A stretch of DNA of 64,000 bases from an uncultured Verrucomicrobiales bacterium. Its GTDB lineage: Bacteria; Verrucomicrobiota; Verrucomicrobiia; JADLBR01. Positions 4,502 to 61,783 of the stretch are shown here, one piece after another (positions within the stretch are counted from its first letter, which is position 1; each line of letters begins with the position of its first letter). The position numbers and the translations under genes were made by a program. Location of the stretch: contig CAZYWZ010000014.1 of assembly GCA_964651705.1 (NCBI GenBank), positions 9,743 through 73,742 on the forward strand. The letters are read 5' to 3'. The notes beneath the pieces are model-generated. The model saw nothing but the letters and a program-made list of their open reading frames with translations. It made no database searches and was not told the DNA's origin.

Positions 4502-6628
4502 CTACTCAGTTCTTCTGCTTCTGATCTCGTACATGCGGTATCCGACCTCGCGGATGCCGGCTATGGTCTCGGGGTAGGGGGTGTCACAGACGTCCAGGAA
4601 TCCGTTCTGGAGGTTCTCGCCGTCGAAGCGGCCGGTGGTGGGCTGCTCGCCGAATTGGTGCCAGTGGGCGCCGATGATGTTCGGGTGGCGGAGGGCCGAG
4701 GCGATGTAGGTCGCGTAGGCCCTGCCCCGCGCCTCCTGATTTTCGACTTGGATGAGGCTGGGGTGGAACATGCCGCGGTCGAGCGCGCCGAAGTGGAACT
4801 CGCCGATCATGACCGGCTTGTCCACGCCCTCGGGCAATTTGAAATCATCGAGCGTATGGCGGTACAAATTGTAGCTGATGACGTCGCAGTATTTCGCGCC
4901 GATCTGGACGGCGGCCTTCGTCGAGCCCGCGAAGCGGCAACCCATGTACAGCGTGTTGGGCGCGGCGGCCTTGAACTCGTCGCGGATGTTCTTGAAGTAC
5001 GCCTCGGTCACGGCGGCGCTGAATTCGACGCAGTCCCCCTTGGACCCCGGCGGCGGCTTCTCCTGCGATGCGAGGAGCGCTTCCCAGTCGGCGTGGAGCG
5101 ATCCCCACGCCGCGTTGAGCTTGTCGACCGCGCCGTACTTGTCCTTCAGCCGGTTGACGAATTCGATCTTCGCGGGCTGGGCCGCGGGCGATGCAAGCGT
5201 CCACTCGGCCAGCGAGGTCTCGCCGCCCCAGCTGATCTCGTTGTCGACGAAGAACCCGAAGCACCATGGGTCGTCGAGTTCCTCCTTGCGGGCCAGCAGT
5301 TGCTTTCGGAGGTTCGCGCGGAACTCGGGGTGGAAGGGATCCTTGAACTTCCACCAGCCGAGGTGGGCGCCCTCGATGTCCGGGGATCGCATCTCGAATC
5401 GGTCGCAATAGGGGGTGCGGCGCTGGAGGCAGATGGCCTTGTCGGAGCTGTTGGCGATGGTGTTCATGCCCCAGCTCCTCAGGCGCCTGTGGGCCATGTC
5501 GGCGTAGCGCGCGATCCAATCGGGGCCGTATTTGCGGAAGGCGTTCGCCGACGAGAAATCGTAGGTCCGCTGGATCCCGCGGGCCTCGTAGTAGGGCCAC
5601 AGGAGCGCGTCGCGGGTCGTGTAGAACATGGCGAATGGGGAGTCCGGCGACGGGAGGTCGGTGAAATAAAATTCTCGTTCGTCCAAGGGTGTCACGGCCG
5701 AAGACGAGGTGACGCGCACCGGGCCGTGCGACCACCAGAGGCAACCCTCGGGATCCACCATCCACCATTTGCCATCGATCTTCTCGACGCGGAAGCGGCC
5801 GGTCGCCTCCCGCTTCGGTCCCTTGGCCCAGCCGCCATATTTGTTCCACCCGTCCGGGCCGGGATGCGAGGCGAGGTCGGCGCGCTCGGCGTCGATGGCC
5901 CTCTTCAGATCCTCGTCCGAGTGCGTCTTGCCGGGCCATTCATTATGCTTGAACTGTCCGTACACATCGATGAATGGGAAGAACTCGTCGGCCGAGAGTC
6001 GCATCCACGCAGGCACTTCCGGCCACCGGTAGCCGCCGAGGTAAGGAGGCGGATTCGGCTCGGTGTGCGCCACGATCCGCTTCACGCCCCAGAGCCAGTC
6101 CAGCTTGGGCTCCTTGATATAGACCGCCACGCCGACGACCTCTGCCGGATCGAGGTCGGCGACGACCCCGGTGGTGGCGAATGGCCCGCGCTTCATTCCC
6201 GCCAGTTTGCTCGTGATCTCTCGGCCATGGGGCAACGGGGGTGGGAGCGCGATGGTGTAGCCCGCAGGAGTCTTGCCCCGGATCTTCACCCGATCGATGA
6301 AGACGCCCAGGGACTTCCCGGGATCCGCGTCGGGATTGTCGAGGCGAATCGTCAGGGGCAACTCGCCCTTCCTGTCTAGGTTCGCCAGTTCGAGCGTGAG
6401 GCGGTTGCACCGGGACAGATCCCATGATCCCCGGATGATCACGCCGGGGTAGCCGGTGTCTCCCTTGGTCGCGACCTCCAGCAGGCCGTCCTGCAAATCG
6501 AATTTTCCGCCCGAGTGCGACGCCACCGACGCGATGGGGGTTTGCGCGGCATCGAAGAGCACGATCTCATCGGCCTGCGCGGTTCCCGCAGCCAAGAGCA
6601 GCACCATCCAGCAGTTCGTTTCTTTCAT
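4502..6628 (-). CDS. secreted clan GH-A (TIM-barrel) glycoside hydrolase, GH50/GH42-like, with N-terminal beta-sandwich domain
   Basis: Signal peptide MKETNCWMVLLLAAGTAQA. FFVDNEISWGG (NE acid/base-like) and VMIGEFHFG (nucleophile-like) motifs. 708 aa. Confidence 0.6.
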   Translation of the reverse strand: MKETNCWMVLLLAAGTAQADEIVLFDAAQTPIASVASHSGGKFDLQDGLLEVATKGDTGYPGVIIRGSWDLSRCNRLTLELANLDRKGELPLTIRLDNPDADPGKSLGVFIDRVKIRGKTPAGYTIALPPPLPHGREITSKLAGMKRGPFATTGVVADLDPAEVVGVAVYIKEPKLDWLWGVKRIVAHTEPNPPPYLGGYRWPEVPAWMRLSADEFFPFIDVYGQFKHNEWPGKTHSDEDLKRAIDAERADLASHPGPDGWNKYGGWAKGPKREATGRFRVEKIDGKWWMVDPEGCLWWSHGPVRVTSSSAVTPLDEREFYFTDLPSPDSPFAMFYTTRDALLWPYYEARGIQRTYDFSSANAFRKYGPDWIARYADMAHRRLRSWGMNTIANSSDKAICLQRRTPYCDRFEMRSPDIEGAHLGWWKFKDPFHPEFRANLRKQLLARKEELDDPWCFGFFVDNEISWGGETSLAEWTLASPAAQPAKIEFVNRLKDKYGAVDKLNAAWGSLHADWEALLASQEKPPPGSKGDCVEFSAAVTEAYFKNIRDEFKAAAPNTLYMGCRFAGSTKAAVQIGAKYCDVISYNLYRHTLDDFKLPEGVDKPVMIGEFHFGALDRGMFHPSLIQVENQEARGRAYATYIASALRHPNIIGAHWHQFGEQPTTGRFDGENLQNGFLDVCDTPYPETIAGIREVGYRMYEIRSRRTE

Positions 6629-6669
6629 CTTCTGTCTCCGGTCTTCATTTTATTTTGCCATGCGAAGGG

Positions 6670-8946
6670 CTACGGCGCCTCCAGCGGCGGCGGGGGATGC
6701 ACCGGGTGGGCCGCCGGCCAGGTGGCGCGGGACTCGTTTTGGCGCAACCCGATCTGCTCGAAAGGGATTCTCTCGAACCCGATATTCCAGGCGGGCGAGT
6801 CCCCCCGAAGCTGGAAGTTGCCGGCCTTTTCATTGACGAACCTGGGGTCCACATCGACCAGGTTGTCTTCCAGTCGCACCAGATCGAGGACCTTCGCTTC
6901 GATGTGTTGCCACCACGTCGCTTCGATGGGTTTGCCTTGAGACATGCGGCGCAGATACTCGCCCTGTCCCTGCCAGAAGATGTTGCGGCGAACGATGTTG
7001 CCTTTGGGCTTTGCGGGCTCATCGTCCAGCATCGTCGCAAGCTTCGGATAACGCGTGCTGAAAGGTGGCTCTTTGAAGCGAACGCCGCAAAGCTCCCCTG
7101 TCTCTCGGGCCGTCTTGAGTCGCGGCTCCACGGCATACGCCGCCCAGCCCAAGGCGCGCGCATCCAGATGAAAGGCCCGCGGGCAATCCACGAAGACGTT
7201 GTTTTCGACGAGATTATCACGCCCTCCGCCGATAAAGACCGCCTGCATGACCTGAGAAAAGACATTGTTTCGCACCGTGGCGCCGGAAAACTCGTCGTCC
7301 AGATAGATGCCCCTGCACCAGCCGCCATCCTTGCCGCTGATATGGTGCAGGTAGTTGTATTGAAATACGTTGCCGCGCAAGCACCAGCTGCGCCCGGCGT
7401 AGATCGCGCCGCAGTCGTGCGATTCATTGCAGACATTGTGGATCTCGTTGTATTCAAACAGATGCTCCTGGCCGCCGAACAGGATTGCGGCGTGGGGGGC
7501 GTCGTGGATCAGGTTGTGTGACGCGCGGAGGCCCACGCCGCTCATGAAAATCCCCGGCCGATACATTCGATCCCAGCGGCCATAGTGATGGATGTGGTTG
7601 TTCTCGGCAAAATGGCCGCCCGGCTCGAGCGTCTTTCTGTCGCCTCCGATGAGGTAGATCCCGCCGCCGCCCATGCCGTGCATGTCGCAGCCGACGACAC
7701 CGTTCTCCTTGCCTTCGAAGATGGTGACGGCGTGGTTGCCCAGATTGCGGAACGTGCAGGCGACAAGGCGGCATCGTTGGCCGCCGGTAATGGTGATTGC
7801 CGTCCCGCGCGCGGCCTCCATCAGCAGGCCGTGAATCGTGACGTGCGACGCGTCTGTCATCGTGAAGAGGCCCGGCGCCATCGAGACCTCGACCCGCGCG
7901 CGTTCGATGGGCCCCGGAGGCCAGAGGTAGAGGATTCCCGCCGCGCGGTCGATATACCATTCGCCGGGCGCGTCGATTTCGCAGAGGAGATTGAATCCGC
8001 GGAACCACTGGCCCTTCCGGTAGCCGTAATAGTGGTACGGTGGCTCGACGGAGATGATCCGCTTCTCTGGATCGATGGATGCGATCTTGTGGCGCTGTGT
8101 GGCCCAGTCGCGGAACCAGTATCCGCGGACCCACGCGTCCTTCTCGCCCAGCCACCGCCTGGGCCGGTCGCCCTCGTAGACGAACACACCCTCCTTGCAG
8201 CCCTTGGTGCCACGGACATCGATCTCCGTCTTGCCCAGCACCTCTTGAATCTTGATGAAGTCGTCGTTCGGCCAGCGCGACAGCGTCATCGGCTGGTCGT
8301 TGAAGAAGACCTCCAGTCGCGGCTTGACTGTCTTGCCCGCACTGGCGTGTGCGCTCCCAATCATGTCCTCGGCCTGATTGTCGACCTTTGCCAGCCACAA
8401 CTGGAGCTCCGCCGCGGCGTCCAGGCCGAGGTCGCCATATTCTGTCACGCCCAGCGCGCGCAGATCGGCTTGAAACACCTTGCCGCGCGCAGGCGGATCC
8501 AGACGGCTGAGGGTGGCTGGCTCGGTGACGGGGCTCCATCCACCCACGATTCGCCCTCCACTGATGTGGACCGCGTCGCCCCGTCTCGCGCGATAGATGA
8601 TGGGGGAGTCAGCGGTTCCGGAATCTTCCGCAGTCAGTGCGACGGGCTTCGAGAGCTCATATCTGCCGGCCAGAATCTCCACGACGATGCCGCCTCTCGG
8701 CAGGCCGCCATTCGCCTTGATCCGGCGGATTTCATCGCGGGCGCGCTCGATCGTGGCGAACGGCCCGTCGGTCTTTCCGGTGTTCGGTTCCGCCGCATTG
8801 CCGGACCACGCGTCGTCGCCATCCGCGGCCACGTAAATGATCGCGCCTGGATGTTCCTCGGGCGCCGCATCTCGGTCGGCGGGCGCACAGGCGGCGATCG
8901 CCGCCAGCAGGGTTGCAGACAATGCCGTTCGCAGATCGTCCCTCAT
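6670..8946 (-). CDS. secreted right-handed parallel beta-helix repeat protein (pectin-lyase fold), putative polysaccharide lyase/hydrolase
   Basis: Lipoprotein-like signal (LLAAIAAC). Repeated NxxxHD/NN[VI]F beta-helix turns. Paralog of 23856-26252 with shared blocks NHIHHYG/NHIHHLG and HDAPHAAILFGG/HDAPYSGIIGGG. Confidence 0.65.
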   Translation of the reverse strand: MRDDLRTALSATLLAAIAACAPADRDAAPEEHPGAIIYVAADGDDAWSGNAAEPNTGKTDGPFATIERARDEIRRIKANGGLPRGGIVVEILAGRYELSKPVALTAEDSGTADSPIIYRARRGDAVHISGGRIVGGWSPVTEPATLSRLDPPARGKVFQADLRALGVTEYGDLGLDAAAELQLWLAKVDNQAEDMIGSAHASAGKTVKPRLEVFFNDQPMTLSRWPNDDFIKIQEVLGKTEIDVRGTKGCKEGVFVYEGDRPRRWLGEKDAWVRGYWFRDWATQRHKIASIDPEKRIISVEPPYHYYGYRKGQWFRGFNLLCEIDAPGEWYIDRAAGILYLWPPGPIERARVEVSMAPGLFTMTDASHVTIHGLLMEAARGTAITITGGQRCRLVACTFRNLGNHAVTIFEGKENGVVGCDMHGMGGGGIYLIGGDRKTLEPGGHFAENNHIHHYGRWDRMYRPGIFMSGVGLRASHNLIHDAPHAAILFGGQEHLFEYNEIHNVCNESHDCGAIYAGRSWCLRGNVFQYNYLHHISGKDGGWCRGIYLDDEFSGATVRNNVFSQVMQAVFIGGGRDNLVENNVFVDCPRAFHLDARALGWAAYAVEPRLKTARETGELCGVRFKEPPFSTRYPKLATMLDDEPAKPKGNIVRRNIFWQGQGEYLRRMSQGKPIEATWWQHIEAKVLDLVRLEDNLVDVDPRFVNEKAGNFQLRGDSPAWNIGFERIPFEQIGLRQNESRATWPAAHPVHPPPPLEAP

Positions 8947-8971
8947 GTTCTCCTTTTCCTCTCTGGTGGTG

Positions 8972-11200
8972 TCATGATCCGTCGTGAGTAGGGCGCGGTG
9001 GTCTCCGCTTCCAGATGACCAGCCGGACGCTCTGGGCGGGAAGGGCGGCTAACGCCTCGACGTCTCCATGTTCCGGATCCGACGCGGACACCAGGTCGGC
9101 ATCGGGCGCGCTCAGCGAAAACGGCGCTGCCTTTTCGCCGGGGTTCCAGACCAATACCGCGAGCCGGTCGCCTGCCGCGAAACCTTTGGCGACGAGTCCC
9201 TCGCCGCGGAAGGCAAAACCTTCTTCGTCAACGAATCGCCCGTGCCAGAGCAGGTCGGCGTTGGCGCGCTGGAATTCGATCATCTGCCTGAGGTATCGGG
9301 TCGCCTCTTCCGGGGGGACGGATTGCATCAGCGCGATGTTGGGTTTGCTGATGACCTCGGCGTATTCCTCGGCATCGGGCACGATGTCTTCCCTCAGATA
9401 GCGCACGTCCGGCGCATAGCGCGACTCGATCTCGAAGCGGAAGCCGTAGGCGCACGTGTAGTTGGCCATCGCGCGACCCATCATCGGGGTGGGCATCCGG
9501 ATCGTGCTCATCGCCTCGGGGAACGTGTACCGGAACATCTCGGGGAATGCCGGTGCGGCGGAGGCGCCGCTGAGGCGCGTCAGGATCTCTCCCGGCGACG
9601 CCTCGAAGGTGCCAAAGGTGCAGCCGTGGAACATCGCGATCGAATCCAGGACGCTGTCGTGCAGCCCTTCGGTCATCACGATGAAGTCGGGATCGATCGC
9701 CCGCATGTGGTCCGCGATCCTCCGTATGAAGCGGACCCGGTCGGACGCGTAGACCATCGATGGGACGGGGTGCCCATGCCCCTGGGCGTAGCACGGCATC
9801 GGTTCGTAGATGCCGAGCTGGTCGTAGAGAATGCCGTCGGCCCCGAGGTCATCGGCCTGGACGGCAAGCTCCAGCATGCGGTCATACCATCCCTGTGTCA
9901 TCAGGCAGCCGAGGCCGAAATGGCGCGGGGGCGCGTTCCGGTATTTGTGGTAAGTCAATTGCGTGGGCGCACCATCGCGCCCGATGACGGTCAGGTCCTT
10001 GCCGCGCGTCTCCCAGAATTCCGTCCCGATCTCCTGGAGTTGGCCGTTTGCGTACAGGATCGTTTTCTTGCCACGATGTCGCGCCTCCTTGAGCGCCTTG
10101 CGGAGCGCGTCCGCACCGCCCATCTCGGGGTCGGGTATGTAGTCGGGGTAGAGGTGGTCGTGGCCGCCGTGGGCCCAGCCGAACAGCCCGAGGATATCAA
10201 GGCCTCTTGCGTCGGCCACATCACAGAGTTTCCCCAACGAGTGGTAGTCCCAGAGAACCTCGCCGTTCTGCTGCTTGAGAATGCAGAGCAGCCAGCCCGA
10301 GGCGTCCCGGGCCCAGGCCGGCGGATCGATCGGTCGCGCGACCGTGTCGGCCCAGGCGCGGTAGTGACGGGCCGCCGCGTGCCACGTCCCCTCGTAGGGC
10401 AATATCAAGGTCGGCGGCAGAGACCAGCGCCCGCCTGTCGGGCAGAAGATCTGGTGTTTCAGCGCCATGCCAAAGGTGTTGTCCGACGGGTCGTGGCGAA
10501 CACGGAGCGATTTTGCGCTGTGCGTCGCGTCGTGGCAGCCCAGATAGAGGCCGCCCTGTTTTCCGGCGAACGCGCACCACTGCATGGTCCCGCGGCGGCT
10601 GGGGTAGTCGGCCGAGATTTCGAAACCGCGACCCCACGCTTTCCAGGGCGCAGTTTTGCCCGCGGTGGGCGCGCGATCGAGCCGGCGACCGAATCCCTCG
10701 GGCAATAGCACGGGGTGCGCGGCCAGATCGGCCTGGATGCCATGGAGCACCGGCCCGGTGAAGCCGCAGACGACCCACCCTTTCTCGTCATTTCGGATTT
10801 CTCCCGTGATCTCGAACGCGTCGCCAGTGGGGCGGATGTCGATCGTGACCCCGATGTCCCATGTCCTCTTCCCGTCGCCGAGCGTGCCGCAGGTCAATCG
10901 GATGCCCTCCGCCATCGCGGCGCGCGTCACGGGTTGCCCCTGGTCCGTCAGGACGATCGGTTCGGCCCCCACGGGGGGTGGGGTATCTGGCTGGACCAGC
11001 ACCGCCCACAGCGGGTCGCCCTTGGCCCGGATGGCGGGGCACGCGGCGATCGCGGGCGCGAGGCCGATGCCTTGGGCATCGGCCTGGAGTTCGCCCTTCG
11101 GCCCCTTGACCCGGATCGCCTCTCCACCCTCGGTGGGCATCGACAACAGAAACCATCCCAATCCCACCACCATAGCTGTGTTTTTCGCGATCATTTGCAT
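8972..11200 (-). CDS. secreted hypothetical protein, possible glycoside-hydrolase-like TIM barrel
   Basis: 742 aa, signal peptide MQMIAKNTAMVVGLGWFLLS. Consistent codon usage within the operon. No family recognised with certainty. Confidence 0.5.
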   Translation of the reverse strand: MQMIAKNTAMVVGLGWFLLSMPTEGGEAIRVKGPKGELQADAQGIGLAPAIAACPAIRAKGDPLWAVLVQPDTPPPVGAEPIVLTDQGQPVTRAAMAEGIRLTCGTLGDGKRTWDIGVTIDIRPTGDAFEITGEIRNDEKGWVVCGFTGPVLHGIQADLAAHPVLLPEGFGRRLDRAPTAGKTAPWKAWGRGFEISADYPSRRGTMQWCAFAGKQGGLYLGCHDATHSAKSLRVRHDPSDNTFGMALKHQIFCPTGGRWSLPPTLILPYEGTWHAAARHYRAWADTVARPIDPPAWARDASGWLLCILKQQNGEVLWDYHSLGKLCDVADARGLDILGLFGWAHGGHDHLYPDYIPDPEMGGADALRKALKEARHRGKKTILYANGQLQEIGTEFWETRGKDLTVIGRDGAPTQLTYHKYRNAPPRHFGLGCLMTQGWYDRMLELAVQADDLGADGILYDQLGIYEPMPCYAQGHGHPVPSMVYASDRVRFIRRIADHMRAIDPDFIVMTEGLHDSVLDSIAMFHGCTFGTFEASPGEILTRLSGASAAPAFPEMFRYTFPEAMSTIRMPTPMMGRAMANYTCAYGFRFEIESRYAPDVRYLREDIVPDAEEYAEVISKPNIALMQSVPPEEATRYLRQMIEFQRANADLLWHGRFVDEEGFAFRGEGLVAKGFAAGDRLAVLVWNPGEKAAPFSLSAPDADLVSASDPEHGDVEALAALPAQSVRLVIWKRRPPRPTHDGS

Positions 11201-11227
11201 CCTTTCCGCATCAACAACCGGAGGCGT

Positions 11228-14716: not shown

Positions 14717-14723
14717 GACTGCA

Positions 14724-16805: not shown

Positions 16806-16834
16806 CCCCGTGATTTCTTGTTGGCCCGCATCCG

Positions 16835-20496: not shown

Positions 20497-20515
20497 CGTG
20501 CGGCCCGCCTTCGGT

Positions 20516-21874: not shown

Positions 21875-21899
21875 CGCAAACCTCCGCCCGATTCCTCTT

Positions 21900-23033: not shown

Positions 23034-23061
23034 CGGGGTGCTCCTTCGGGTGTGTTGCATT

Positions 23062-23778: not shown

Positions 23779-23855
23779 GGTCTTCGCCTCATTTCGCTTC
23801 TGAAGGAGTTGGCAAGGATTCTCGCGCCAGAGACCTTTGCGTGCGGATCAGGGAG

Positions 23856-26252
23856 TCACTTCAACTCGATCATCCCGGCCTCATCGAGCCTCCAATTTTC
23901 CCCAAGCGTCCCCTCCCAGCAGTGCCATTCGCCGAACTCGCTATAGAAGGCGGCCATGTTGAAAGCGGCCCGGCGGTCTGTTGCCGGATTCAGGCCGAGG
24001 GCGGCGAACGGGATGGCCCATTCGCCGCGCCAGCCCTTGCCGAAGAGGCCGCCGGGGCCGGGGATGGACCCGGCGGCGAACCGCGTCGCCTTGCCCACTC
24101 GCTCGGCGGCGTCGGCGGGCGCGCCGGCATCCGTGCCGCTCTGGAGCGCGCCGCACGGGTAACCGCGCACGATAAACGTCGCGGGTTTCCCGTCGGGGGT
24201 CTTTCCCGCGATGCAGATCTCGACGCCGTCGTCCTTGCCCCAGACCGAGTTGGTGCTGACCTTGGCGGGGCCAAACATGGTGACGTTGGCGGCCACGTAG
24301 AGGCAGGTGTCGTCGTACGCAAACTTCGCCATGGCGGGAGCGCCACCGACGCTGAAGCGGGATGGTTCCCGGTCCAGCGTCTGGAGTTTCCCCGGCCATT
24401 CGCCAGTCTTCATCTCGCCGTCGATCGCCGGCGCGGCATCCGCGCGCTCGGCCACGGCGGGGCCCTTCTTGCGCGCCGGCGTGGGTTCTGGCGGCATCGC
24501 GTCGCTGATGGTGAATGGCTCTGGCGCGCCATTCGTTTTGCCGCCGTAGTAGATCACGTTGTTCTTCCATGCGCGGATGCCGTTCGCCTGGCGGACGTTG
24601 AGCTTGCCTGGCACGAACAGCGTATTGCCCTCGAAGGTGCAGCCCACGGATCGCTGGAACGAGACCGTCATGTCGCCATCGGCGATGAAGACGTTGTCGC
24701 GCACGGTGATGTTGCGCGTGATGTGATTGTGGGTGGGCATCGGAACCCCCACGGCCACGTTGCGCTCTATGACGCAGTCCCGAGCGCCCTCGTCGAGGTA
24801 GTAGGCCGAGGCCCCGAAACCGCTGCCCGCCTGCACGACATCCCGGACGACGTTTCCCCGGATGGTGCAGGCATTCATGTTGCCGTAGATCGCCGCGCCG
24901 TCATGCATCTCGCGCATCACGCGGTAGATCAGGTTCTCCTCGATGAGGTTGCCCGTGGATCCGCCCCCGCCGATGATCCCGGAGTAGGGCGCGTCGTGGA
25001 TCTCGTTTCGGAGGATGCGCAGCCTGTTTCCGGTGAGCATGGACGCGGCGGCGCCGGGGTAGTACACGCCCAGGTGATGGATGTGGTTCCGGGCGATGAG
25101 CGTCTCCTCGCCCTGGATCTTTGCGCCGCACGCGCCGATGTGATGGATCCGGCAGCCGGTGAGGCGGCAGTTGAAAAGCTGATCCCCCCGGAAGCCGACG
25201 CCGCCGACGTTGCGGATCTCGAGATCCTCGAACGCGCAGTTCTTTCCGGAGACCACGTGGATGGCGCCGTCGAATGCGGTGGCGCCGAAGCTCGCGGGCT
25301 TGAGCGGCGCGGTGGTCGCCTGCACGCCCAGGCCGCGAATCGTCATGCCCTCGACGGGTTTGTCGCGAGAGCCGGTGATGCCGATGACCCTTTGGGTGGC
25401 TGGCGCGACGATCTTGATCTTGGCCATGTCCTCGCCCTGGAGCGGCCAATAGACGAGGCGGCCGGCCGTGCGGTCGAGGTACCACTGGCCCGGGCGGGTC
25501 ATTCCCTCACGCGTGTTGTAGATCACGTACTTCCTCCGGTTCAAGGCCCCGGGTGGCCAGGCGGGCTCGGAGGAGAGGATCAGCGCGTGCCGTTGGAGAT
25601 CGTTGCTGGAGACCCCGACGAGCGATTCGGCCCACATGTGGTACAGGCGGACCTCGGCGTTTCTCACGTCGAGCGTGGGCGGGATGTCCTTTGGGTCGTA
25701 GGGCATCGTGGTGAGTTCCTCGTGCGTCGGCTTGCGCTCCCAATGTCCCGCTACGGCGGGCAGGAGGGGCAGGTTCCAGGTGCCTAGGTTCTCGAACGCG
25801 TTGGTCGCCGGGAAGCGGGCGCGCTCGGCGAGTCGGCCGTCGACGACCAGGGCGCGAAAATCCCATGTCCCCTCCTTGACGCCGGGCAAGTCCGCGCACC
25901 ACAGGGCGCCGCCGCAGCGCTTCCAGCCCGTCACGCGGCGGCCACCGTACAGCGTGGCGCCGTTGGTGGTCGCCGACTCGATGGTCAGGCCGTTGTCGCG
26001 GGCGTCGAACTCGACGGGCCGATGAAGGAAATACTCGCCTGGCATCACGGCGATGCGATGGGGTCCCGTGCCGGCCTTCCTCGCCGCATCGCGCGCCGCC
26101 TCCAGCGTCGCGAACGGTTGCTGCTCGGTTCCGGCGTTCGTGTCGTCGCCCCCGGGGGCGACATGGAAGGTGGCGGAATCCGCCGGCTCAATGAAGGCCA
26201 GCGCGACGGCGGCCAAGATCGCCGCATGGTTGGTGTGGATCGCCTGATTCAT
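23856..26252 (-). CDS. secreted right-handed parallel beta-helix repeat protein with C-terminal extra domain, paralog of 6670-8946
   Basis: Start MNQAIHTNHAAILAAVALAF at 26252 overlaps the upstream stop (ATGA, 26249-26252). Beta-helix repeats RNHIHHLG, NEIHDAPYSG, NLIEENLIY. The ORF-track N-terminal 337 codons (to 27263) are rejected. Confidence 0.65.
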   Translation of the reverse strand: MNQAIHTNHAAILAAVALAFIEPADSATFHVAPGGDDTNAGTEQQPFATLEAARDAARKAGTGPHRIAVMPGEYFLHRPVEFDARDNGLTIESATTNGATLYGGRRVTGWKRCGGALWCADLPGVKEGTWDFRALVVDGRLAERARFPATNAFENLGTWNLPLLPAVAGHWERKPTHEELTTMPYDPKDIPPTLDVRNAEVRLYHMWAESLVGVSSNDLQRHALILSSEPAWPPGALNRRKYVIYNTREGMTRPGQWYLDRTAGRLVYWPLQGEDMAKIKIVAPATQRVIGITGSRDKPVEGMTIRGLGVQATTAPLKPASFGATAFDGAIHVVSGKNCAFEDLEIRNVGGVGFRGDQLFNCRLTGCRIHHIGACGAKIQGEETLIARNHIHHLGVYYPGAAASMLTGNRLRILRNEIHDAPYSGIIGGGGSTGNLIEENLIYRVMREMHDGAAIYGNMNACTIRGNVVRDVVQAGSGFGASAYYLDEGARDCVIERNVAVGVPMPTHNHITRNITVRDNVFIADGDMTVSFQRSVGCTFEGNTLFVPGKLNVRQANGIRAWKNNVIYYGGKTNGAPEPFTISDAMPPEPTPARKKGPAVAERADAAPAIDGEMKTGEWPGKLQTLDREPSRFSVGGAPAMAKFAYDDTCLYVAANVTMFGPAKVSTNSVWGKDDGVEICIAGKTPDGKPATFIVRGYPCGALQSGTDAGAPADAAERVGKATRFAAGSIPGPGGLFGKGWRGEWAIPFAALGLNPATDRRAAFNMAAFYSEFGEWHCWEGTLGENWRLDEAGMIELK

Positions 26253-28351
26253 TGGGGCGACTCCAGCAGCAGGTAGTTTCGGGGCGGGACGGCGACGCCG
26301 GCAGGCAGCGCGAATGGCTCCTCGCGATAGTTGACCAGCACCCGCTGGCCGTTGGCGTAGGTGGTCTCGACGACGCCCTCTTCTATCTGGCGGTGGCTCT
26401 CGAGAAATTCCATCTGGAGATGCCCGAGGCGTCCGACATCGTCGTATACGCGTCGCAGGCCCGCCACGGTCTCCTTCAGTTGCCCGGGGTCGTCGTAGCG
26501 GTAGTCGTTTTTGCCGAGCCAGTTCTTGGCGGCGTCGAGGAGGAAGTGGCCGTAGAAATACGCCAGTGGCGCCGCGCCGTACTCGATGCCGCGCAGGTAG
26601 GCGTCCTCGCCCGGGCGGCTGTTCACGGATTCGGTGGATAGCGTGTACAGCATGACGCCGTGGTAGACGGTCTCGTAAAGCGGAACGCGCGCGTCCACGT
26701 AGGGTCGATTCGTCAGGGGCAGCCACTTGTCGCAATCGACGTAGAGGAGGCGGTCGAGCGCTGGCGCGGCGAAGTCCAGCGAGCCCTCGGACTGTGAGCC
26801 GCCGAACGTCTTTTGCGCGAGCGCGAGGATGCGGGTGGTGGCTTTGGCATCTTGGCCTCGGGTCTGTGGGTGGGCCGGGTCGTAACAGGGGCGTGGACCG
26901 AGGATCGAGAGCACGTCGGAGTAGTGGAGGCCATTGAATCCGAGCGCGCGGATGCGGGGCATGTCGCGTTTGGCGAAGAGGTCCAACGCGCGCGCGAGGC
27001 AGATGTTGTAGCTCTGTCCGCCGCCCCAGGCGCCGCCCTTTTGCGGCGAACCATCGCGCTCCTTGCGCAGATATTCCTCGCTCCAGTCCTCGGAGATGCG
27101 GTACGCGCCGTAGTAGCAGTCGTGAGCGACCATCTGGTAGCCGAGGGATTGCCCGTGGCGGATGGTCGTGCGCAGCGCGTCCTCGCCTCCCAGCGCGGGC
27201 TCGACGGGGAAGACCTGCGGGTAGCGGCCGTCGTGGCCGCCGCGGTTCCAGCCGACGAGGCAAAATTCGGCGCGCGCGATCCCCTGCCGGTGGAACTCAT
27301 CGAGGATGTCGCGCACGCGGCGGAAATCGCAGAAGACGCGAACGGGCGGTTCGGTCTCGGGCGTCTGCTCTTTGATCTCATGGGGAACTGGTTTGACGCC
27401 GAGCCGTATGCGGACCTCGATGGCGCGCGCCGAATATGCCAGGGCCGTGGACCCCGCCGCGCGCTCGCGCAGGGGCCGGATGCCGCGATGCGCGAAGTTG
27501 TATTGACGGTAGCGTTTGCCGATGGCGGGCCACCCTGCCTCGGGGGCGGGGAGAAAATGGTAGTCCACCGCGATGTCGTCCGGCAGGCGGGCCTCCTCGC
27601 GGAAAGAGCGGAGCGTGAACGCCGGATCGATCCCGTACTGGTGCCGTGGGCCCACGTTTGTCGCGACGCAAAACCGCGCGTCGAACTGCCCGCCCGTGAT
27701 GATCCCGGCGAGGGCGCCGCCGCCGCGCACGATGCCGAACAGCGGCATCGGGCACTGGCAGGAACTCTGGTACACCGACACCCAGTGTTCGCCGGGCCGC
27801 TTGTCCCGAAAATGGCACAGCGCGCCCGACTGCTGCGCGATGACCAGGTAGCCGTCATCTCCCTCCGATGCCGCGCCGAAACGCGGCAGCAGCCGCAGTG
27901 TCTTCAGTCGCGCCTGGCCGGTCTCTTGCATGCTGTCGGCGGGGGCGCGGGCGGTCAGCGTGTCGTTGGTGGCGGTCAGCCTCAGGTCCAAGAAGAAGCC
28001 GAGGTCCGCGTGTTGGCATCCGAGCCGGAATCCGCCTTCGATCGCGCGGCGCTCGATCGTCCAGCCCTCGTCCGGGATCAGGCCGAGCGAGCGCTCTTTG
28101 CCCGCGGCGTCCCAGAAGGTGACCTCGGCGAGGCGATCGCACCTCCAGGCCAGCGGGTCGTCGCTTCGTTGGACGGAAATGGCGCCGCTGTCCGGGGCGA
28201 CATCCCACGCCAGGCTACCGGCGGCGCCTGTGTGGGGCGGCCCCGCAAACGATGCCAGGGCCATGGCGAGCCACGGCAGGCATGCGCGCGCCGTCACGAG
28301 ATGGGATTTTGGGGTGCGTCTGGCCGGGGACCGGTTGGGGTGCCGGGCCAT
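26249..28351 (-). CDS. putative glycoside-hydrolase-like protein, paralog of 14724-16805
   Basis: Shared YHFLPAPEAGWPAIGKRYR block. Start chosen at MARHPNRS..LPWLAMALASFAG (signal-like). The ORF extends to 28432. Confidence 0.55.
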   Translation of the reverse strand: MARHPNRSPARRTPKSHLVTARACLPWLAMALASFAGPPHTGAAGSLAWDVAPDSGAISVQRSDDPLAWRCDRLAEVTFWDAAGKERSLGLIPDEGWTIERRAIEGGFRLGCQHADLGFFLDLRLTATNDTLTARAPADSMQETGQARLKTLRLLPRFGAASEGDDGYLVIAQQSGALCHFRDKRPGEHWVSVYQSSCQCPMPLFGIVRGGGALAGIITGGQFDARFCVATNVGPRHQYGIDPAFTLRSFREEARLPDDIAVDYHFLPAPEAGWPAIGKRYRQYNFAHRGIRPLRERAAGSTALAYSARAIEVRIRLGVKPVPHEIKEQTPETEPPVRVFCDFRRVRDILDEFHRQGIARAEFCLVGWNRGGHDGRYPQVFPVEPALGGEDALRTTIRHGQSLGYQMVAHDCYYGAYRISEDWSEEYLRKERDGSPQKGGAWGGGQSYNICLARALDLFAKRDMPRIRALGFNGLHYSDVLSILGPRPCYDPAHPQTRGQDAKATTRILALAQKTFGGSQSEGSLDFAAPALDRLLYVDCDKWLPLTNRPYVDARVPLYETVYHGVMLYTLSTESVNSRPGEDAYLRGIEYGAAPLAYFYGHFLLDAAKNWLGKNDYRYDDPGQLKETVAGLRRVYDDVGRLGHLQMEFLESHRQIEEGVVETTYANGQRVLVNYREEPFALPAGVAVPPRNYLLLESPQ

Positions 28352-28421
28352 CGGATCCACGGTCGGACGACCGCGGTTGCGATCTGGAGTGTTCGTGCGG
28401 CATCCCTCGGATACTTTCGGG

Positions 28422-29816
28422 TCAGTTTCCATGTTCGGTTATCCGGTCGTTTCGAAACGTCCACGCCAGCGCCGCGAGGATGGCGAGCGCCCCGATGAGG
28501 TAGGCGGCGGACAGGCCGGCAAAACCCAGGGACAGGCCGCGGACCTGCCCGAGCGATTGGGCGCCCAGGCCGATGAGCCATGGGGAGAGCGACCCGGCGA
28601 GGAACGCGACCATCACCATGACGGAGACAGCAGACGCGCGGAAGCGGGGTTCGATGACATCGAACAGCGAGGCGTGGGTGTTGCTCTCATAGAGGCCGCG
28701 GAACAGGCCGAAGGCCGACATCGCGAGCAGGGTGGCGCCGAGGTCGGATGCGAGGCCCATCACGGCGATGGCGGGTGCGCCCAGCGCCATCGAGATGGCC
28801 TGCATCCTGAGACGTGACGCGGGCCAGCGCGCCGCCCACCGGTCGGAGAGATGGCCGCCGACGATGACGCCCACGAGCGCCAGCAGGTGGTGGAAAAACA
28901 TCGCATAACCGCCCGACACCGTGAGCGAGAGCGAGAATTTCTCTTTGAGGAACACCGGGGCCCAGACGACGTAGGCGTTGTTGACGGTGACGATGGCGGT
29001 GAAGCCGATGGTCAGGAGGATTGCGGTGGGCACCCGGAACAGTTTTCCCAGCGCCTCGAATGGGTGCAGCCAGCGCGTGCCGGCGGCGGCAGGCATTCCT
29101 GCCTGCGCCGGCGGCCCTGAGCCGACCTTGGCAGACAGGAATGTCTGCCTCACGGGCGCCCCGTTGTCCCGAGAACGCGGCGCGTCTTTGAGTCGGAACA
29201 CAAAGACGGCGCCGAGGAAGATGCCGCAGCCCCCGAAGGCGTAGAACGCCGAGCGCCAGCCCCAGCGCTCGGCGATCCAGCCGCCCAGGAAGCCGCTGGC
29301 CATCACGCCGACGTAGAGGGCCGCCTGATGGATCGACATGGCGAGGGCGCGGGTCTCCCGATGGTAGGTCCCCAGCAGGGAATAGGCCGCCGGGGCGTAG
29401 AAGGACTCCCCGCCCGCGGTCGCGACGCTGCGCAGCAGGATGAGGCTCACGATCCCGCCCGCAAATCCCGTGAATAGCGTCGCCGAACTCCAGAAGATGA
29501 GGGCGCCGGTGATGAGCCACTTGCGGCTCAGGATGTCGCCGAGGTACCCGGCGAAAGGCATCAGCACCGCAAGGGTCGCGAACAGGACCGTTCCCACGAG
29601 CCCCACCTGGGGATCGCTCAGCCCGAGATCGGCGCGGATGTCGGCGAGCACGACCCCGAAGATCGCGCGGTCGCCCTGGTGGAAAAAGAAGGCGAGGCAG
29701 AGGAGCGCGAGGAGCTCCCATTTGTAGCGCTGGGCTGGGGGAGAGTGATTCAAGGAAGATGGACAGATTGTAGGCCGGCTGTGCCGGCCGGCAATCTTGA
29801 GTGCGGCGGCTGACAC
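28422..29816 (-). CDS. MFS transporter (sugar acid / oligosaccharide type)
   Basis: 12 predicted TM segments. MFS motifs GDRAIFG and LGDILSRKW (D-R/K-x-G-R-[KR]-like). Confidence 0.8.
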   Translation of the reverse strand: MSAAALKIAGRHSRPTICPSSLNHSPPAQRYKWELLALLCLAFFFHQGDRAIFGVVLADIRADLGLSDPQVGLVGTVLFATLAVLMPFAGYLGDILSRKWLITGALIFWSSATLFTGFAGGIVSLILLRSVATAGGESFYAPAAYSLLGTYHRETRALAMSIHQAALYVGVMASGFLGGWIAERWGWRSAFYAFGGCGIFLGAVFVFRLKDAPRSRDNGAPVRQTFLSAKVGSGPPAQAGMPAAAGTRWLHPFEALGKLFRVPTAILLTIGFTAIVTVNNAYVVWAPVFLKEKFSLSLTVSGGYAMFFHHLLALVGVIVGGHLSDRWAARWPASRLRMQAISMALGAPAIAVMGLASDLGATLLAMSAFGLFRGLYESNTHASLFDVIEPRFRASAVSVMVMVAFLAGSLSPWLIGLGAQSLGQVRGLSLGFAGLSAAYLIGALAILAALAWTFRNDRITEHGN

Positions 29817-29822
29817 AGCCGC
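29804..29822 (-). terminator. hairpin GGCGGCTGtgtcAGCCGCC downstream of the SDR gene (no U-tract)
   Basis: 7-bp perfect stem between the SDR stop and the MFS start. GC-rich organisms often lack a poly-U tail. Confidence 0.25.
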
Positions 29823-29851
29823 CCTACAAACATAGCATGCGCTTTCATCGC

Positions 29852-30628
29852 CTAGACCTCGGCATCCGGCGGGACGAGTTGCACCGAGCAGCCGCCATCG
29901 ACGACGAGCCGCGCCCCGGTGATCCGGGCGGCGTCGTCCGACGCCATGAAGAGGACGGCCCCGGCGATGTCATCGGCCGATGACTCGCGGCCCAGCGGGA
30001 CGTTGGCGCGGCGGCGGGCGACCTGCGCGTCGTCGAGCGCATCCCAGCGATCCGTGTGGATGTAGCCGGGCGCGACGGTGTTGACGCGGATGCCGTGGGG
30101 ACCGAGCTCGATGGCCATGGCGCGCGTCAGGGCATCGACGCCACCCTTGGAGGCGCAGTAGGCGCTCCGGTTTCGGATGGGGCGCTCGGAGACGTTCGAG
30201 CCGACGTTGACGATCGCGCCGCCGGTCCCCTGAGCGATCATCATGCGGGCGGCCAGTTGGGCGCAGTGGAACAGGCCGATCAGGTTGACGCGGAGGGTCT
30301 TTTCCAGCAGATCCAGCGGGGTGTCGACGAAGGAGGGGCCGATGGCTTGCGCGACGGCGTTGTTGACGAGAATGTCCAGGCCGCCGCATTCGCTTCGGAC
30401 GAGGTCAAACATCGCCTGGATCTGCGCGGGGTCGGAGAGGTCCGCGGGCGCCTCGATGAGGCGCGCGCCGGCAGCGGATCGGATCGCGGCGGCGGCGGCG
30501 GCCGCGCCCTTGGCGGTGGAGCCGTTGATCGCGACGGTGGCGCCCGCCTCGGCGAAGCGGCGGGCGATGCCCAGGCCCGTGTTGCGGGAGGCGCCGGTGA
30601 CTAGGATGCGTTTGCCCCCGAAGTTCAT
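29852..30628 (-). CDS. short-chain dehydrogenase/reductase (KduD/UxuB-like 2-keto-3-deoxy-sugar-acid reductase candidate)
   Basis: TGASRNTGLG Rossmann motif, NNAV, S..YCASK (Y-x3-K) catalytic motif. Confidence 0.8.
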   Translation of the reverse strand: MNFGGKRILVTGASRNTGLGIARRFAEAGATVAINGSTAKGAAAAAAAIRSAAGARLIEAPADLSDPAQIQAMFDLVRSECGGLDILVNNAVAQAIGPSFVDTPLDLLEKTLRVNLIGLFHCAQLAARMMIAQGTGGAIVNVGSNVSERPIRNRSAYCASKGGVDALTRAMAIELGPHGIRVNTVAPGYIHTDRWDALDDAQVARRRANVPLGRESSADDIAGAVLFMASDDAARITGARLVVDGGCSVQLVPPDAEV

Positions 30629-30695
30629 GCTGAATCGAAACTTCTGGGTGTAGCCACGGTCGTGAGACCGTGGACGTGCTGGCCGAGCGCCCGGA

Positions 30696-30720
30696 CCCAT
30701 CTGTTACCAGATGGGCTACA
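30696..30720. repeat. hairpin motif CCCATCTGttacCAGATGGGCTACA, family R5, copy 1
   Basis: 8-bp perfect stem and 4-nt loop. Also at 36800-36824 and 38528-38551 in the same orientation, each upstream of a minus-strand gene start. Confidence 0.7.
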
Positions 30721-30737
30721 TTCTTGATCGCCTAGAA

Positions 30738-31919
30738 TCATGCTTTCGTTCCTCCGGTTCCAAAATACGACGTCGCATCGGGTGGGCGGATCTGCGTGAG
30801 CGCGCCGGTGTAGTGGCGGAGGTCGCGCGGCACGTAGGGATGTTTCGCGATCTCGCCCTCCCGGATGTCGATGCCGAGGCCCGGGGCATCCGGGATGAGC
30901 ATGTGGCCGTTCTCGAGGCGCGCGGCCTCGGTGCTGACCTCGCGGCGGTGCGCCACGTCGGAGGACATCGTTTCCAGAAGGAAGAAATTGGGCGTGCAGG
31001 CGGCGAGTTGCAGGGTCGCGGCGTTGGCGACGGGTCCGGAGGGGTTGTGGGGGCAGACGGGGATGTGGTGGGCCTCGGCCATCGCGGCGATCTTCCGGAC
31101 CTCGCCGATGCCGCCGGCGTGGCTCACGTCCGGTTGGATGTAATCGGCGCACCCGAGCCGGAGGTAATTGCGGTAGTCCCAGCGGCTGTAGAGGCGCTCG
31201 CCCCCGGCGATCGGCACCTTCACCCGGCGTTTGATCTCGGCCAGCGCCTCCGGGTTATCGGGGGGGATCGGTTCCTCGAACCAGGTGATATCGAAGTCCT
31301 CCAGCGCGTGGGCGATGCGGACTGCGGTCGGCACGTTGAAGCGGCCGTGGCCCTCGATGAGGATGTCCACCTCGGGACCCGCGGCCGAGGCCACGGCGGC
31401 GATGCATTCCAGCGCCCCGCGCAACTCGCGCTTTCCGATGTCCCTGTACGCGCTGCCGAAGGGATCCCACTTCAGCCCGCGGAAGCCTTGCGCCACGGCG
31501 GCCCTGGCTTTCTCCGCGAACTCGTCCGGCGTCACGGCCGGCGCAAACCATCCGTTGGCATAGCAGGGCACGCGGTCGCGCACCCGGCCCCCGAGCAACT
31601 GCCACACCGGAACCCCGAGCGCCTTGCCCTTGATGTCCCAGAGGGCCATCTCGACCCCGGCCAGCGCGCTCATCAGGACGGGGCCGCCCCGCCAGTACGC
31701 ATCGCGATACGCGTCGTGCCAGAAGGCCTCGATGTCGTGCGGATCGCGGCCCACGAGATAGCGTCCCAATTCGCGGCAGGCTTGCGCCACGGTCTGCTCG
31801 CGCATCTCCAGCGTGGCTTCGCCAACGCCGTGAAGGCCGCCGTCGGTGTCGACCCTGACGAAGACCCAGTTCGTCCGGTACGCGTGGCAGAGGAAGGTCT
31901 GGATGCCGGTGACTTTCAT
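30738..31919 (-). CDS. enolase-superfamily D-galactonate / D-mannonate dehydratase family (DgoD/ManD)
   Basis: AYWRGGPVLMSALAGVEMALWDIKGKALGVPVWQLLGG matches the DgoD/ManD capping-domain block. LSHAGGI barrel motif. 393 aa. Confidence 0.8.
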   Translation of the reverse strand: MKVTGIQTFLCHAYRTNWVFVRVDTDGGLHGVGEATLEMREQTVAQACRELGRYLVGRDPHDIEAFWHDAYRDAYWRGGPVLMSALAGVEMALWDIKGKALGVPVWQLLGGRVRDRVPCYANGWFAPAVTPDEFAEKARAAVAQGFRGLKWDPFGSAYRDIGKRELRGALECIAAVASAAGPEVDILIEGHGRFNVPTAVRIAHALEDFDITWFEEPIPPDNPEALAEIKRRVKVPIAGGERLYSRWDYRNYLRLGCADYIQPDVSHAGGIGEVRKIAAMAEAHHIPVCPHNPSGPVANAATLQLAACTPNFFLLETMSSDVAHRREVSTEAARLENGHMLIPDAPGLGIDIREGEIAKHPYVPRDLRHYTGALTQIRPPDATSYFGTGGTKA

Positions 31920-31931
31920 GGGAGATTATTG

Positions 31932-32918: not shown

Positions 32919-32944
32919 CGGTGACTCTTTTGTGGGACGGGGGC

Positions 32945-61767: not shown

Positions 61768-61783
61768 CGCCTACCTTTTCCCC

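Follow-up and report, generated by a model that had tools for sequence, protein, structure and literature searches.

A fifteen-gene polysaccharide-utilisation-type cluster in an uncultured Verrucomicrobiales bacterium and its candidate link to galactonate-type catabolism

Which glycan does an uncultured Verrucomicrobiales bacterium take apart with a 27-kb run of fifteen genes, and into which catabolic route would the released sugar flow? The run lies between positions 31919 and 4502 of a 64-kb stretch of contig CAZYWZ010000014.1 (hereafter the window), and its genes are numbered g1 to g15 in that order, from 31919 downwards. A preliminary description of the window had noticed that several of the products lack an assignment to a family of the CAZy type, and this is so. 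The answer that we favour, with somewhat better than even confidence, is a polysaccharide-utilisation-type cluster for an O-acetylated, galactose-rich heteroglycan that feeds a De Ley-Doudoroff front end. What we observe, and build upon, is the layout of the genes, the family relationships of their products, the sequence motifs of g1 and g15, the predicted folds, and the recurrent co-localisation of the same families across phyla.

The co-directional glycan-degradation cluster of fifteen consecutive minus-strand genes that had been proposed is confirmed by the listing of open reading frames (ORFs), by GC content at third codon positions (GC3) and by inspection of start codons. GC3 served as the filter between real genes and shadow ORFs in this window of about 65% GC, and frame analysis on this basis found no plus-strand gene with coding-like composition within 4502-31919. 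Starts were chosen from signal-peptide-like N-termini, from gene calls in a 98%-identical metagenome contig that keeps the order g5-g14 (L006; L-numbers denote contigs and loci from other genomes and metagenomes) and from the start of the orthologue of g2, a short-chain dehydrogenase/reductase (SDR), in an activated-sludge relative (L093). With the best-supported starts the largest spacer is 109 nt, in agreement with the earlier limit of 110 nt; from g1 to g15 the spacers measure 109, 35-98, 70 (or an 11-nt overlap), -4, 77, 28, 25, 19, -4, 32, 7, 33, 25 and 41 nt. Two of four ATGA overlaps described previously do connect adjacent genes (g4/g5 at 26249-26252 and g9/g10 at 19294-19297), whereas the other two flank a 38-codon ORF (30625-30741, minus strand) in the g1-g2 spacer, whose ATG overlaps the stop codon of g1 and whose own stop overlaps the ATG of g2. 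We considered this ORF as a coupled small gene and rejected it, since the nearest relative, L093, lacks it: there g1 has a longer C-terminal tail and shares an ATGA overlap with the SDR start; it is probably the remnant of a truncated g1 tail.

Terminator-like sites inside the cluster occur at chance level (17 versus 12.9±3.3, and 4 versus 6.7±3.0), as do promoter-like sites (1 versus 2.4 and 2 versus 1.3 expected), and Rfam gave no match to a riboswitch or other RNA element. The GC content of the cluster (63-68%) is no different from that of its flanks. The layout is real and operon-like, with co-directional genes, short spacers and terminators that are not enriched, and the cluster probably represents one long operon in which internal promoters may also occur. 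One such promoter or more is plausible because a close relative, discussed below, has just the distal five genes behind an IS91-family transposase.

The catabolic end of the cluster, proximal to the presumed promoter, consists of three genes, the third of which encodes a permease of the major facilitator superfamily (MFS). Lengths are given in amino acid residues (aa).

30738-31919, minus strand: g1, enolase-superfamily acid-sugar dehydratase of the DgoD type, 393 aa, no signal peptide; Pfam MR_MLE_N and MR_MLE_C
29852-30628, minus strand: g2, classical SDR oxidoreductase, 258 aa, no signal peptide; Pfam adh_short_C2 (4.5e-60)
28422-29816, minus strand: g3, MFS permease of the anion:cation-symporter (DgoT-like) type, start at 29816 or 29753; Pfam MFS_1 (7e-48)

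The g1 product scores above the cut-off of the NCBIfam equivalog model for galactonate dehydratase (NF010624; 351.3 bits versus 311), and every other NCBIfam acid-sugar dehydratase model stays below its own cut-off. Pairwise alignment with Escherichia coli DgoD extends over the full length at 35% identity and retains H185, E209, E235, D258 and H285, with D183 replaced by E; we take these six positions to have catalytic or metal-binding roles in the E. coli enzyme. When PDB sequences were searched, DgoD-type proteins scored 249 bits versus 171 bits for the carrageenan enzyme DauB (5olc), which is also a homologue of g1 (2e-49). The top NCBIfam model for g2, whose start (MNFGGKR) is backed by the orthologue in L093, is glucose 1-dehydrogenase at 209.8 bits versus a cut-off of 215, and many SDR models score alike; we propose that g2 is an aldose (galactose) 1-dehydrogenase. 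For g3 the top NCBIfam model is the D-galactonate transporter subfamily, at 109 bits well under the cut-off of 395; the permease is 27% identical to E. coli DgoT, and about ten hydrophobic segments were detected in it.

The neighbourhoods of g1 in other genomes point in the same direction. A metagenome scan anchored on g1 gave 80 loci with orthologues 62-91% identical, in which neighbours were counted by tblastn and ORF clustering. Adjacent to g1 are an SDR in 65 of the 80 loci, an MFS permease in 23, a hydrolase with a metallo-beta-lactamase (MBL) fold, likely a lactonase, in 19 and an enzyme of about 490 aa resembling glycoside hydrolase (GH) families 39 and 42 in 20. A DUF6259 protein (the family of g13) adjoins g1 in six loci, and a GH50 gene (the family of g15) is directly adjacent to the g1 module in four (L094, L096, L168 and L169); L096 combines regulator, SDR, MFS, DUF6259, GH50 and g1. 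A 399-kb Verrucomicrobiae contig from activated sludge carries g1 at 90-91% identity and appears to bear a 78% homologue of g15 as well. The full dgo set, namely 2-keto-3-deoxygalactonokinase DgoK (PF05035, 5e-52), an aldolase for 2-keto-3-deoxy-6-phosphogluconate or its galactonate epimer (KDPG/KDPGal aldolase) and a GntR/FCD regulator, is found at L117 and L119-121, with g1 orthologues of 67-68% identity. Because orthologous modules also carry the MBL-fold putative lactonase, DgoK and KDPGal aldolase, g1-g3 are best read as a predicted De Ley-Doudoroff-type route from aldose through lactone and galactonate to 2-keto-3-deoxygalactonate, and not as a uronate funnel. The MFS permease, the aldonate dehydratase and the SDR reported at the promoter-proximal end are all there; only the uronate half of the earlier "aldonate/uronate funnel" has to be given up, the funnel being of the galactonate type, and the suggestion of a galactose-derived substrate gains support from the DgoD type of g1 and from DgoK and aldolase beside its orthologues.

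We also considered an oxidative pathway for a 6-deoxyhexose (rhamnose or fucose) for g1-g2, an idea that arose from the kinship of g10 to GH106, from Lut-type genes beside a Bacteroidales GH50 gene, and from GlcD/GlcF-like genes at 35451-38219 of the window. It was rejected as the principal explanation: the L-rhamnonate dehydratase model gives g1 138 bits versus 351 bits for DgoD, no fuconate-dehydratase model is among the matches of g1, and its orthologues sit with DgoK and KDPGal aldolase.

Downstream of this module, all twelve products of g4-g15 begin with hydrophobic signal-like segments, which g1 and g2 lack, and they are apparently exported enzymes.

26249-28351, minus strand: g4, DUF5696 protein, distantly GH129/GH101-like, signal peptide, alternative start at 28432; Pfam DUF5696 (3e-55)
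23856-26252, minus strand: g5, GH141-like right-handed beta-helix protein, signal peptide, ATGA overlap with g4; Pfam Beta_helix (1.8e-13)
23062-23778, minus strand: g6, SGNH/GDSL-type esterase, 238 aa, signal peptide; Lipase_GDSL_2 (9.6e-10), weak NCBIfam acetylxylan esterase matches
21900-23033, minus strand: g7, WbsX-family protein (PF14307, "GH99-like"), signal peptide, 377 aa in L006; Pfam Glyco_tran_WbsX (1e-16)
20516-21874, minus strand: g8, SGNH esterase with an unassigned C-terminal half of about 200 aa, signal peptide; Lipase_GDSL_2 (1.4e-20), Lipase_GDSL (2.8e-18)
19294-20496, minus strand: g9, divergent WbsX-like paralogue of g7, signal peptide, ATGA overlap with g10; Pfam WbsX just 0.003
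16835-19297, minus strand: g10, 820-aa secreted protein of a Pfam-less family, TIM barrel and beta-sandwich domains, distant GH106 relative
14724-16802, minus strand: g11, GH129-like, long basic N-terminal region followed by a hydrophobic segment; Pfam Glyco_hydro_129 (4.8e-20)
12437-14716, minus strand: g12, N-terminal module (g12N), GH65/GH95-like (alpha/alpha)6 glycosidase, signal peptide; Glyco_hydro_65m (1e-13), GH95_cat (3e-10), GH65C (7e-5)
11228-12436, minus strand: g12, C-terminal module (g12C), about 400 aa, new Pfam-less (alpha/alpha)6-barrel family fused to the GH65-like module
8972-11194, minus strand: g13, DUF6259 protein, distantly GH101/GH129-like, signal peptide; Pfam DUF6259 (1.1e-27)
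6670-8946, minus strand: g14, candidate beta-helix lipoprotein, GH141-like paralogue of g5, lipobox-like LLAAIAAC at the N-terminus; Pfam Beta_helix (5e-17)
4502-6628, minus strand: g15, GH50 glycosidase (clan GH-A), signal peptide, last gene of the cluster

This order and the family labels agree with those given before for fourteen of the fifteen genes; the exception is g10, which had been called GH2-like.

Residues 218-702 of g15 match exo-beta-agarases (Aga50D, 4bq2, 1.1e-79; 5z6p, 1.4e-79; phmmer), and the alignment with 4bq2 keeps both glutamate motifs (FFVDNEISWG against VFIDNEKSFG and MIGEFHFGA against IIGEFHIGA). We take the catalytic pair of Aga50D to be the acid/base Glu in (I/V)DNE and the nucleophile Glu in GEFH. 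Orthologues of g15 that are 60-90% identical are widespread in Verrucomicrobiota, Kiritimatiellia, Lentisphaeria and Bacteroidales under the NCBI name "beta-agarase", and form a separate, highly conserved clade of Bacteroidales and of the Planctomycetes-Verrucomicrobia-Chlamydiae (PVC) group. The profile cut-off of GH129 is passed by g11 only (PF11308, 72.3 bits versus 25.6), which also matches the GH129 alpha-N-acetylgalactosaminidase 5wzn (2.4e-25) and the GH129 3,6-anhydro-D-galactosidase 5opq (1.9e-12) in the PDB. Neither g4 nor g13 has a GH129 profile match; they are remote kin of g11 and of each other, g4 matching 5wzn (4e-14), g11 (3e-10) and g13 (2e-8), and g13 showing weak similarity to g4 and no PDB sequence match. 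Orthologues of g13 adjoin those of g1 or g10 in L014, L016, L021, L096, L100 and L114 and in a Bacteroidales locus.

Of the two beta-helix proteins, g5 has the GH141 insertion domain (PF21231 GH141_M, 3.5e-8, 33.9 bits versus a cut-off of 27) and matches the founding member of the family, BT_1002 (PDB 5mqp, 3e-22), over residues 28-336 only; g14 is GH141-like solely through its paralogy to g5 (28% identity, 2e-21). Both esterases exceed the SGNH profile cut-off of 32.9 bits (PF13472; 39.7 bits for g6 and 75 bits for g8) and show block I as GNSIT and GDSIT, respectively, and their specificity is presumably for acetyl groups. Homologues of g8 at 50% identity occur in Thermoguttaceae metagenome-assembled genomes (MAGs) in the same loci as g10 orthologues, about 7-8 kb away on the opposite strand. 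The paralogues g7 and g9 share 25% identity (2e-22). PF14307 is the only GH-type family that a Pfam scan (E <= 0.01) returned for either, so that they are not assigned to GH99, and "GH99-like" is a clan-level label; g7 has no PDB sequence match.

The 820-aa product of g10 proved to be something other than a GH2 enzyme. No Pfam or NCBIfam family matches it at E <= 0.01 and no PDB sequence at E <= 1. Its AlphaFold2 model is confident (predicted local distance difference test, pLDDT, 89; predicted TM-score, pTM, 0.90) and comprises a TIM barrel followed by beta-sandwich domains. The top Foldseek matches of the model are the GH106 rhamnosidases 6q2f and 5mwk (E 5e-22, TM 0.54, about 10% identity), followed by GH35 and GH42. 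A GH106 (PF17132) protein of L011 aligns with g10 by BLASTP (7e-12 over 172 residues), sharing FTDEP and GH(M/L)xxE motifs, and the PF17132 profile itself does not hit g10. We therefore regard g10 as a probable distant sister family of GH106, and not as a member of it. The invariant residues E182, just after strand beta-4, and E330, in beta-7, are placed in the model as is typical of catalytic pairs of clan GH-A and may have that role. The family comprises 193 clusters at 50% identity (E <= 1e-30), and its named members almost all belong to Verrucomicrobiota, Kiritimatiellia, Lentisphaerota and Planctomycetota of lakes, digesters, rumen and gut. Fusions with a SASA esterase domain or a GH13 domain occur among the homologues.

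The g12 gene is a fusion. Residues 1-750 (g12N) exceed the GH65 profile cut-off (PF03632, 51.5 bits versus 27) and match the kojibiose hydrolase 7fe3 in the PDB (3.6e-21); the score of 94.8 against the NCBIfam kojibiose-hydrolase cut-off of 800 limits this to family-level kinship. A stand-alone orthologue of g12N at 57% identity lies in a Bacteroidales SusCD locus. The module g12C has more than 1000 homologues, mostly stand-alone and in some cases fused to SGNH or alpha/beta-hydrolase esterases, and it is not specifically GH88/GH105-like. With two SGNH esterases in the cluster and with homologues of g10 and g12C fused to SASA, SGNH or alpha/beta-hydrolase esterases, the acetylated substrate proposed at the outset is plausible.

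The principal argument that these genes serve one pathway is that their families re-associate repeatedly across phyla. A genome scan anchored on g10 identified 26 loci, in four phyla, with a g10 orthologue at least 50% identical, and neighbours within 10 kb were recorded. At least one other family of the cluster lies near g10 in about 16 of the 26. Orthologues of g9 (57-72%) stand directly upstream of g10 in L012, L017, L023 and L024, g14 is found near g10 at 67% identity in L013 and L018, g12C in six loci, and g4, g8, g12N and g13 in others; L014 and L016 contain g1-g4, g10, g12C and g13. The GH39/42-like family seen beside g1 recurs near g10 as well, and true GH106 genes lie near g10 orthologues in L004, L010, L012, L017 and L031. 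In a Lentisphaerae lake MAG, a XylR-type regulator is divergent from a run of SDR, MFS, MBL, dehydratase, GH39/42-like, SGNH, DUF5696/6259, g10 and g12C genes that ends in DUF6259, and a Bacteroidales MAG carries orthologues of g12N (57%), g13 (42%) and g15 (63%) beside SusC/SusD. Altogether, shuffled subsets of the cluster recur around g10 or g1 orthologues in Verrucomicrobiota, Lentisphaerota, Kiritimatiellia, Planctomycetota and Bacteroidota.

A regulatory gene faces the cluster across a control region that has been split by a mobile element, a repetitive extragenic palindrome with its associated tyrosine transposase (REP-RAYT).

33150-34262, plus strand: XylR-type regulator, periplasmic-binding-protein fold with an AraC helix-turn-helix (HTH) domain; Peripla_BP_3 (2.9e-30), HTH_18 (1.1e-20)
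31920-33149, no strand: divergent control region, split by an 863-bp REP-RAYT insertion at 32150-33012

This divergent regulator probably controls the cluster; homologues of 30-76% identity lie near g1 and g15 orthologues. Its start at about 33150 follows the gene call in a near-identical strain contig (L001, 99.7%), and the ATG at 32973 of a longer ORF lies in a REP copy. The REP-RAYT unit (32093-33038) holds, on the plus strand at about 32331-32918, a Y1-transposase-like ORF (Pfam Y1_Tnp, 9e-6). On its flanks the palindrome GCGGACAGGAGTGTCCGCCCTACG occurs five times; no copy was expected by chance, and none occurs elsewhere in the 64 kb. Because L001 joins position 32149 straight to 33013, the 863-bp unit is a recent insertion/deletion polymorphism.

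Several observations concern the surroundings of the cluster. Two independent Logan assemblies of the strain (L088 and L089) both end 80 nt past the g15 stop codon, at about position 4420; because both break at the same point, a repeat or a junction that varies among strains may lie immediately downstream of the cluster, close to an unannotated 206-aa ORF at 3794-4414. Upstream of the regulator, the minus strand encodes a GlcD-like flavin adenine dinucleotide (FAD) oxidase (36855-38219), a GlcF-like Fe-S/CCG protein (35451-36779) and an adenylate-kinase-like protein (34852-35445), an order that is the same in the activated-sludge relative L093 at 86-92% identity. Lut-type lactate-utilisation genes follow the GH50 orthologue in the Bacteroidales MAG. 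It is possible that the glycan cluster is tied to lactate or glycolate oxidation. Two further large proteins, apparently exported and related to glycans, are one of 1067 aa that has an F5/8 type C (discoidin) domain (46614-49817, minus strand) and a 972-aa DUF5703_N and Laminin_G_3 protein (50112-53030, plus strand); housekeeping genes (PheS, ExbB/ExbD, TPR and VWA proteins) part this pair from the cluster. A second, unrelated group of carbohydrate type occupies 56520-63193 on the plus strand and consists of a sulfatase (56520-57992), a neutral-ceramidase-like gene (57989-59563), a GH32 gene of the fructan hydrolase type (about 59566-61767; Pfam GH32N, 1.7e-59) and a second sulfatase (about 61517-63193).

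How the parts might work together can be outlined as follows. The twelve exported enzymes, esterases together with exo- and endo-acting glycosidases, would dismantle the glycan in the periplasm or at the cell surface, where the SGNH esterases g6 and g8 would strip O-acetyl groups and the GH50 enzyme g15 would cleave beta-galactosidic bonds, with GH50 and the GH129/GH101-like proteins forming what may be the conserved core. The three GH129/GH101-like, two GH141-like and two WbsX/GH99-like proteins, the GH65-like module, g10 and g12C would take off other residues, such as alpha-linked galacto-type sugars, 6-deoxyhexose, alpha-glucose and the like. The freed sugar, by default D-galactose, would be imported through the DgoT-like permease g3, oxidised by the SDR g2 to the lactone or aldonate and dehydrated by the DgoD-type g1 to 2-keto-3-deoxy-galactonate, and the kinase and aldolase of the next steps would be encoded outside the window. 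A breakdown product is the probable signal for the XylR-type regulator. An O-acetylated galactose-rich heteroglycan is the likely substrate; an acidic or pectic one is not supported, and agar is unlikely.

Several points weigh against this proposal, and some of them speak for a different origin of the locus, as a mosaic island of carbohydrate-active enzymes in which at least two sub-operons (for instance g1-g9 and g10-g15), each directed at a different glycan, accreted head to tail. We infer, rather than observe, export, co-transcription, the substrate specificity of each enzyme and the identity of the glycan. The SDR g2 is not assignable among the many similarly scoring models, and g3, so far below the cut-off of the DgoT family, might transport aldonates, uronates or oligosaccharides. 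DgoK, DgoA and a lactonase are not in the window, and the synteny with DgoK and DgoA comes from only four of the 80 loci, probably of one or two lineages. In L093, the closest relative with the proximal genes, the stretch between g3 and g4 (13429-19709 of L093) holds a UxuA mannonate dehydratase after the MFS gene, a DUF4832 protein and a 1189-aa Pfam-less protein, and a uronic acid may be processed too in that lineage. The closest named relative, a Verrucomicrobiia MAG (JAPKHT01; L003), has only g10 (85%) and g12-g15, at 82-91% identity, in a block that starts right after a WYL-domain regulator gene and an IS91-family transposase; g11 is an indel, absent from this genome, where g12 follows 17 nt after g10. 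Since only g10 and g12-g15 are present there and g11 is an indel, the cluster is modular and may comprise more than one transcription unit. The different subsets held by other genomes in other orders, the gene fusion in g12 itself and the recent movement of the REP-RAYT element into the control region also fit a mosaic. Against accretion of unrelated parts, both anchors, g10 and g1, have the same families gathered about them again and again in four or five phyla, some loci (L014, L016 and L096) mix proximal and distal members, and within the cluster the spacers stay at or below 109 nt with no enrichment of terminator-like sites. We consider the mosaic unlikely, though worth keeping in mind.

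Two other substrates were weighed. The preliminary description had leaned towards an acetylated acidic polysaccharide, with MFS uptake and a uronate/aldonate funnel; spelled out, this would be a pectin-like or uronic-acid glycan, with uronate taken up by an ExuT-like MFS permease. The cluster does contain two beta-helix proteins and two SGNH esterases, and rhamnogalacturonan acetylesterases are SGNH enzymes; g10 is related to GH106, true rhamnosidases of which accompany its orthologues in the five loci named above, the permease is of the anion:cation-symporter type, and the version of the cluster in L093 includes UxuA. Yet the beta-helix proteins match GH141 (BT_1002) and not pectate lyases or GH28, the sole hit to a lyase model having an E-value of 0.006. 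Pfam and NCBIfam scans of the fifteen proteins returned no polysaccharide lyase (PL), GH28, GH88, GH105, GH2, GH79 glucuronidase, UxaC, UxaA or Udh, hence no lyase and no uronate isomerase or dehydratase family, and no other such uronate or pectin gene was found in the window. Together with a g12C that is not specifically GH88/GH105-like and a DgoD-type g1 whose orthologues have DgoK and DgoA beside them, this makes an acidic substrate quite improbable. Still less probable, to our mind, is an agar or red-algal galactan system with a GH50 exo-beta-agarase, a GH129-like anhydrogalactosidase in place of GH117, and g1 as 3,6-anhydrogalactonate cycloisomerase. Its appeal comes from the match of g15 to characterised exo-beta-agarases such as Aga50D of Saccharophagus degradans, with both motifs, and from the name "beta-agarase" that NCBI gives to its orthologues; likewise, g11 and g4 weakly match the 3,6-anhydro-D-galactosidase 5opq, and g1 belongs to the superfamily of DauB, as in the carrageenan locus of Zobellia. 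Unlike those systems, the operon has no GH16, GH86, GH117, GH2, sulfatase or aldehyde dehydrogenase (Pfam and NCBIfam scans), and g1 is nearer to the DgoD type than to 5olc by the PDB scores given above. The modules of g1 orthologues, with MBL-fold putative lactonase, DgoK and aldolase, fit an ordinary aldose, and activated sludge, lakes, digesters, rumen and human gut, not seaweed habitats, are where homologous loci occur. To our knowledge agar is not O-acetylated, so that the two acetyl-esterase-type enzymes would have no obvious role in an agar system.

The locus can be set beside known systems. Like the polysaccharide utilisation loci (PULs) of Bacteroidota, it combines co-directional exported glycosidases and esterases with a sugar-sensing regulator and a transporter, and orthologues of g12N, g13 and g15 stand inside such a locus in the Bacteroidales MAG. 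In contrast to them, the window has no SusC/SusD pair or gene for a TonB-dependent receptor among the scanned ORFs, none of which has a Pfam hit to Plug, TonB_dep_Rec or SusD, as had been stated earlier; uptake is by an inner-membrane MFS permease only, and the regulator is of the XylR type (periplasmic-binding protein plus AraC) and not a hybrid two-component system or a pair of extracytoplasmic function (ECF) sigma and anti-sigma factors. Because SusC/SusD are missing, the locus works like a Bacteroidota PUL without being a member of that class, as expected for the phylum; their absence is unremarkable in a Verrucomicrobiota genome. With dgoRKADT of E. coli and its De Ley-Doudoroff pathway, the cluster shares the DgoD-type g1 (35%) and an anion:cation-symporter MFS permease, and the orthologous modules of some loci also have DgoK, DgoA and a DgoR-like GntR/FCD regulator. 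The window differs in lacking DgoK, DgoA and DgoR, in having an additional SDR and in embedding the module in a glycosidase cluster; this SDR, and the MBL-fold hydrolase in relatives, argue for entry at the level of the aldose rather than of galactonate.

The enzymes BT_1002 (GH141) and BT_0986 (GH106) of Bacteroides thetaiotaomicron, which act on rhamnogalacturonan II (RG-II), resemble g5, which matches BT_1002, and g10, whose top folds include BT_0986. The similarity is remote, with about 10% structural identity for g10 and a match to the N-terminal half only of g5, and none of GH137-140, GH143, GH78, GH28 or PL1 of the RG-II system is present here. Within the same phylum, the fucoidan loci of Lentimonas reportedly comprise large sets of exported exo-glycosidases and deacetylases, including GH141- and GH95-like enzymes, without SusC/SusD. 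The present operon differs from loci of this kind in having no sulfatases, GH29, GH107 or GH168 and in a catabolic branch for galactose, not fucose. The type of locus is therefore known and expected, although several of the enzymes fall in families that lack a characterised member. Its novelty lies in this combination of enzymes, in the g12 fusion and in at least two Pfam-less families with confident predicted folds. A literature search on DUF5696, DUF6259, PF14307/WbsX as a hydrolase and the co-occurrence of GH50, GH129, GH141 and GH106 yielded nothing usable, and some of the unassigned proteins may already be in recently created CAZy families.

A broader proposal can be put forward tentatively, as one that we find conceivable and short of probable: the enzyme set would be conserved across five phyla for an O-acetylated galactose/deoxyhexose glycan of non-marine habitats, g10 and g12C would found new GH families, with DUF6259, DUF5696 and WbsX-like proteins as further candidates, and the non-marine GH50 clade would consist of galactosidases or galactanases that feed the De Ley-Doudoroff pathway, and not of agarases. 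Clusters such as this one are how bacteria of the PVC group in sludge, lakes, digesters and guts convert complex glycans to carbon, and most of their enzymes are unannotated. The locus offers a compact, testable set in which a non-marine GH50 protein labelled "beta-agarase", three remote GH129/GH101 relatives and two Pfam-less families are physically linked with acetyl esterases and an oxidative galactose pathway. If these proteins were expressed, new CAZy families might be defined and a systematic mis-annotation put right.

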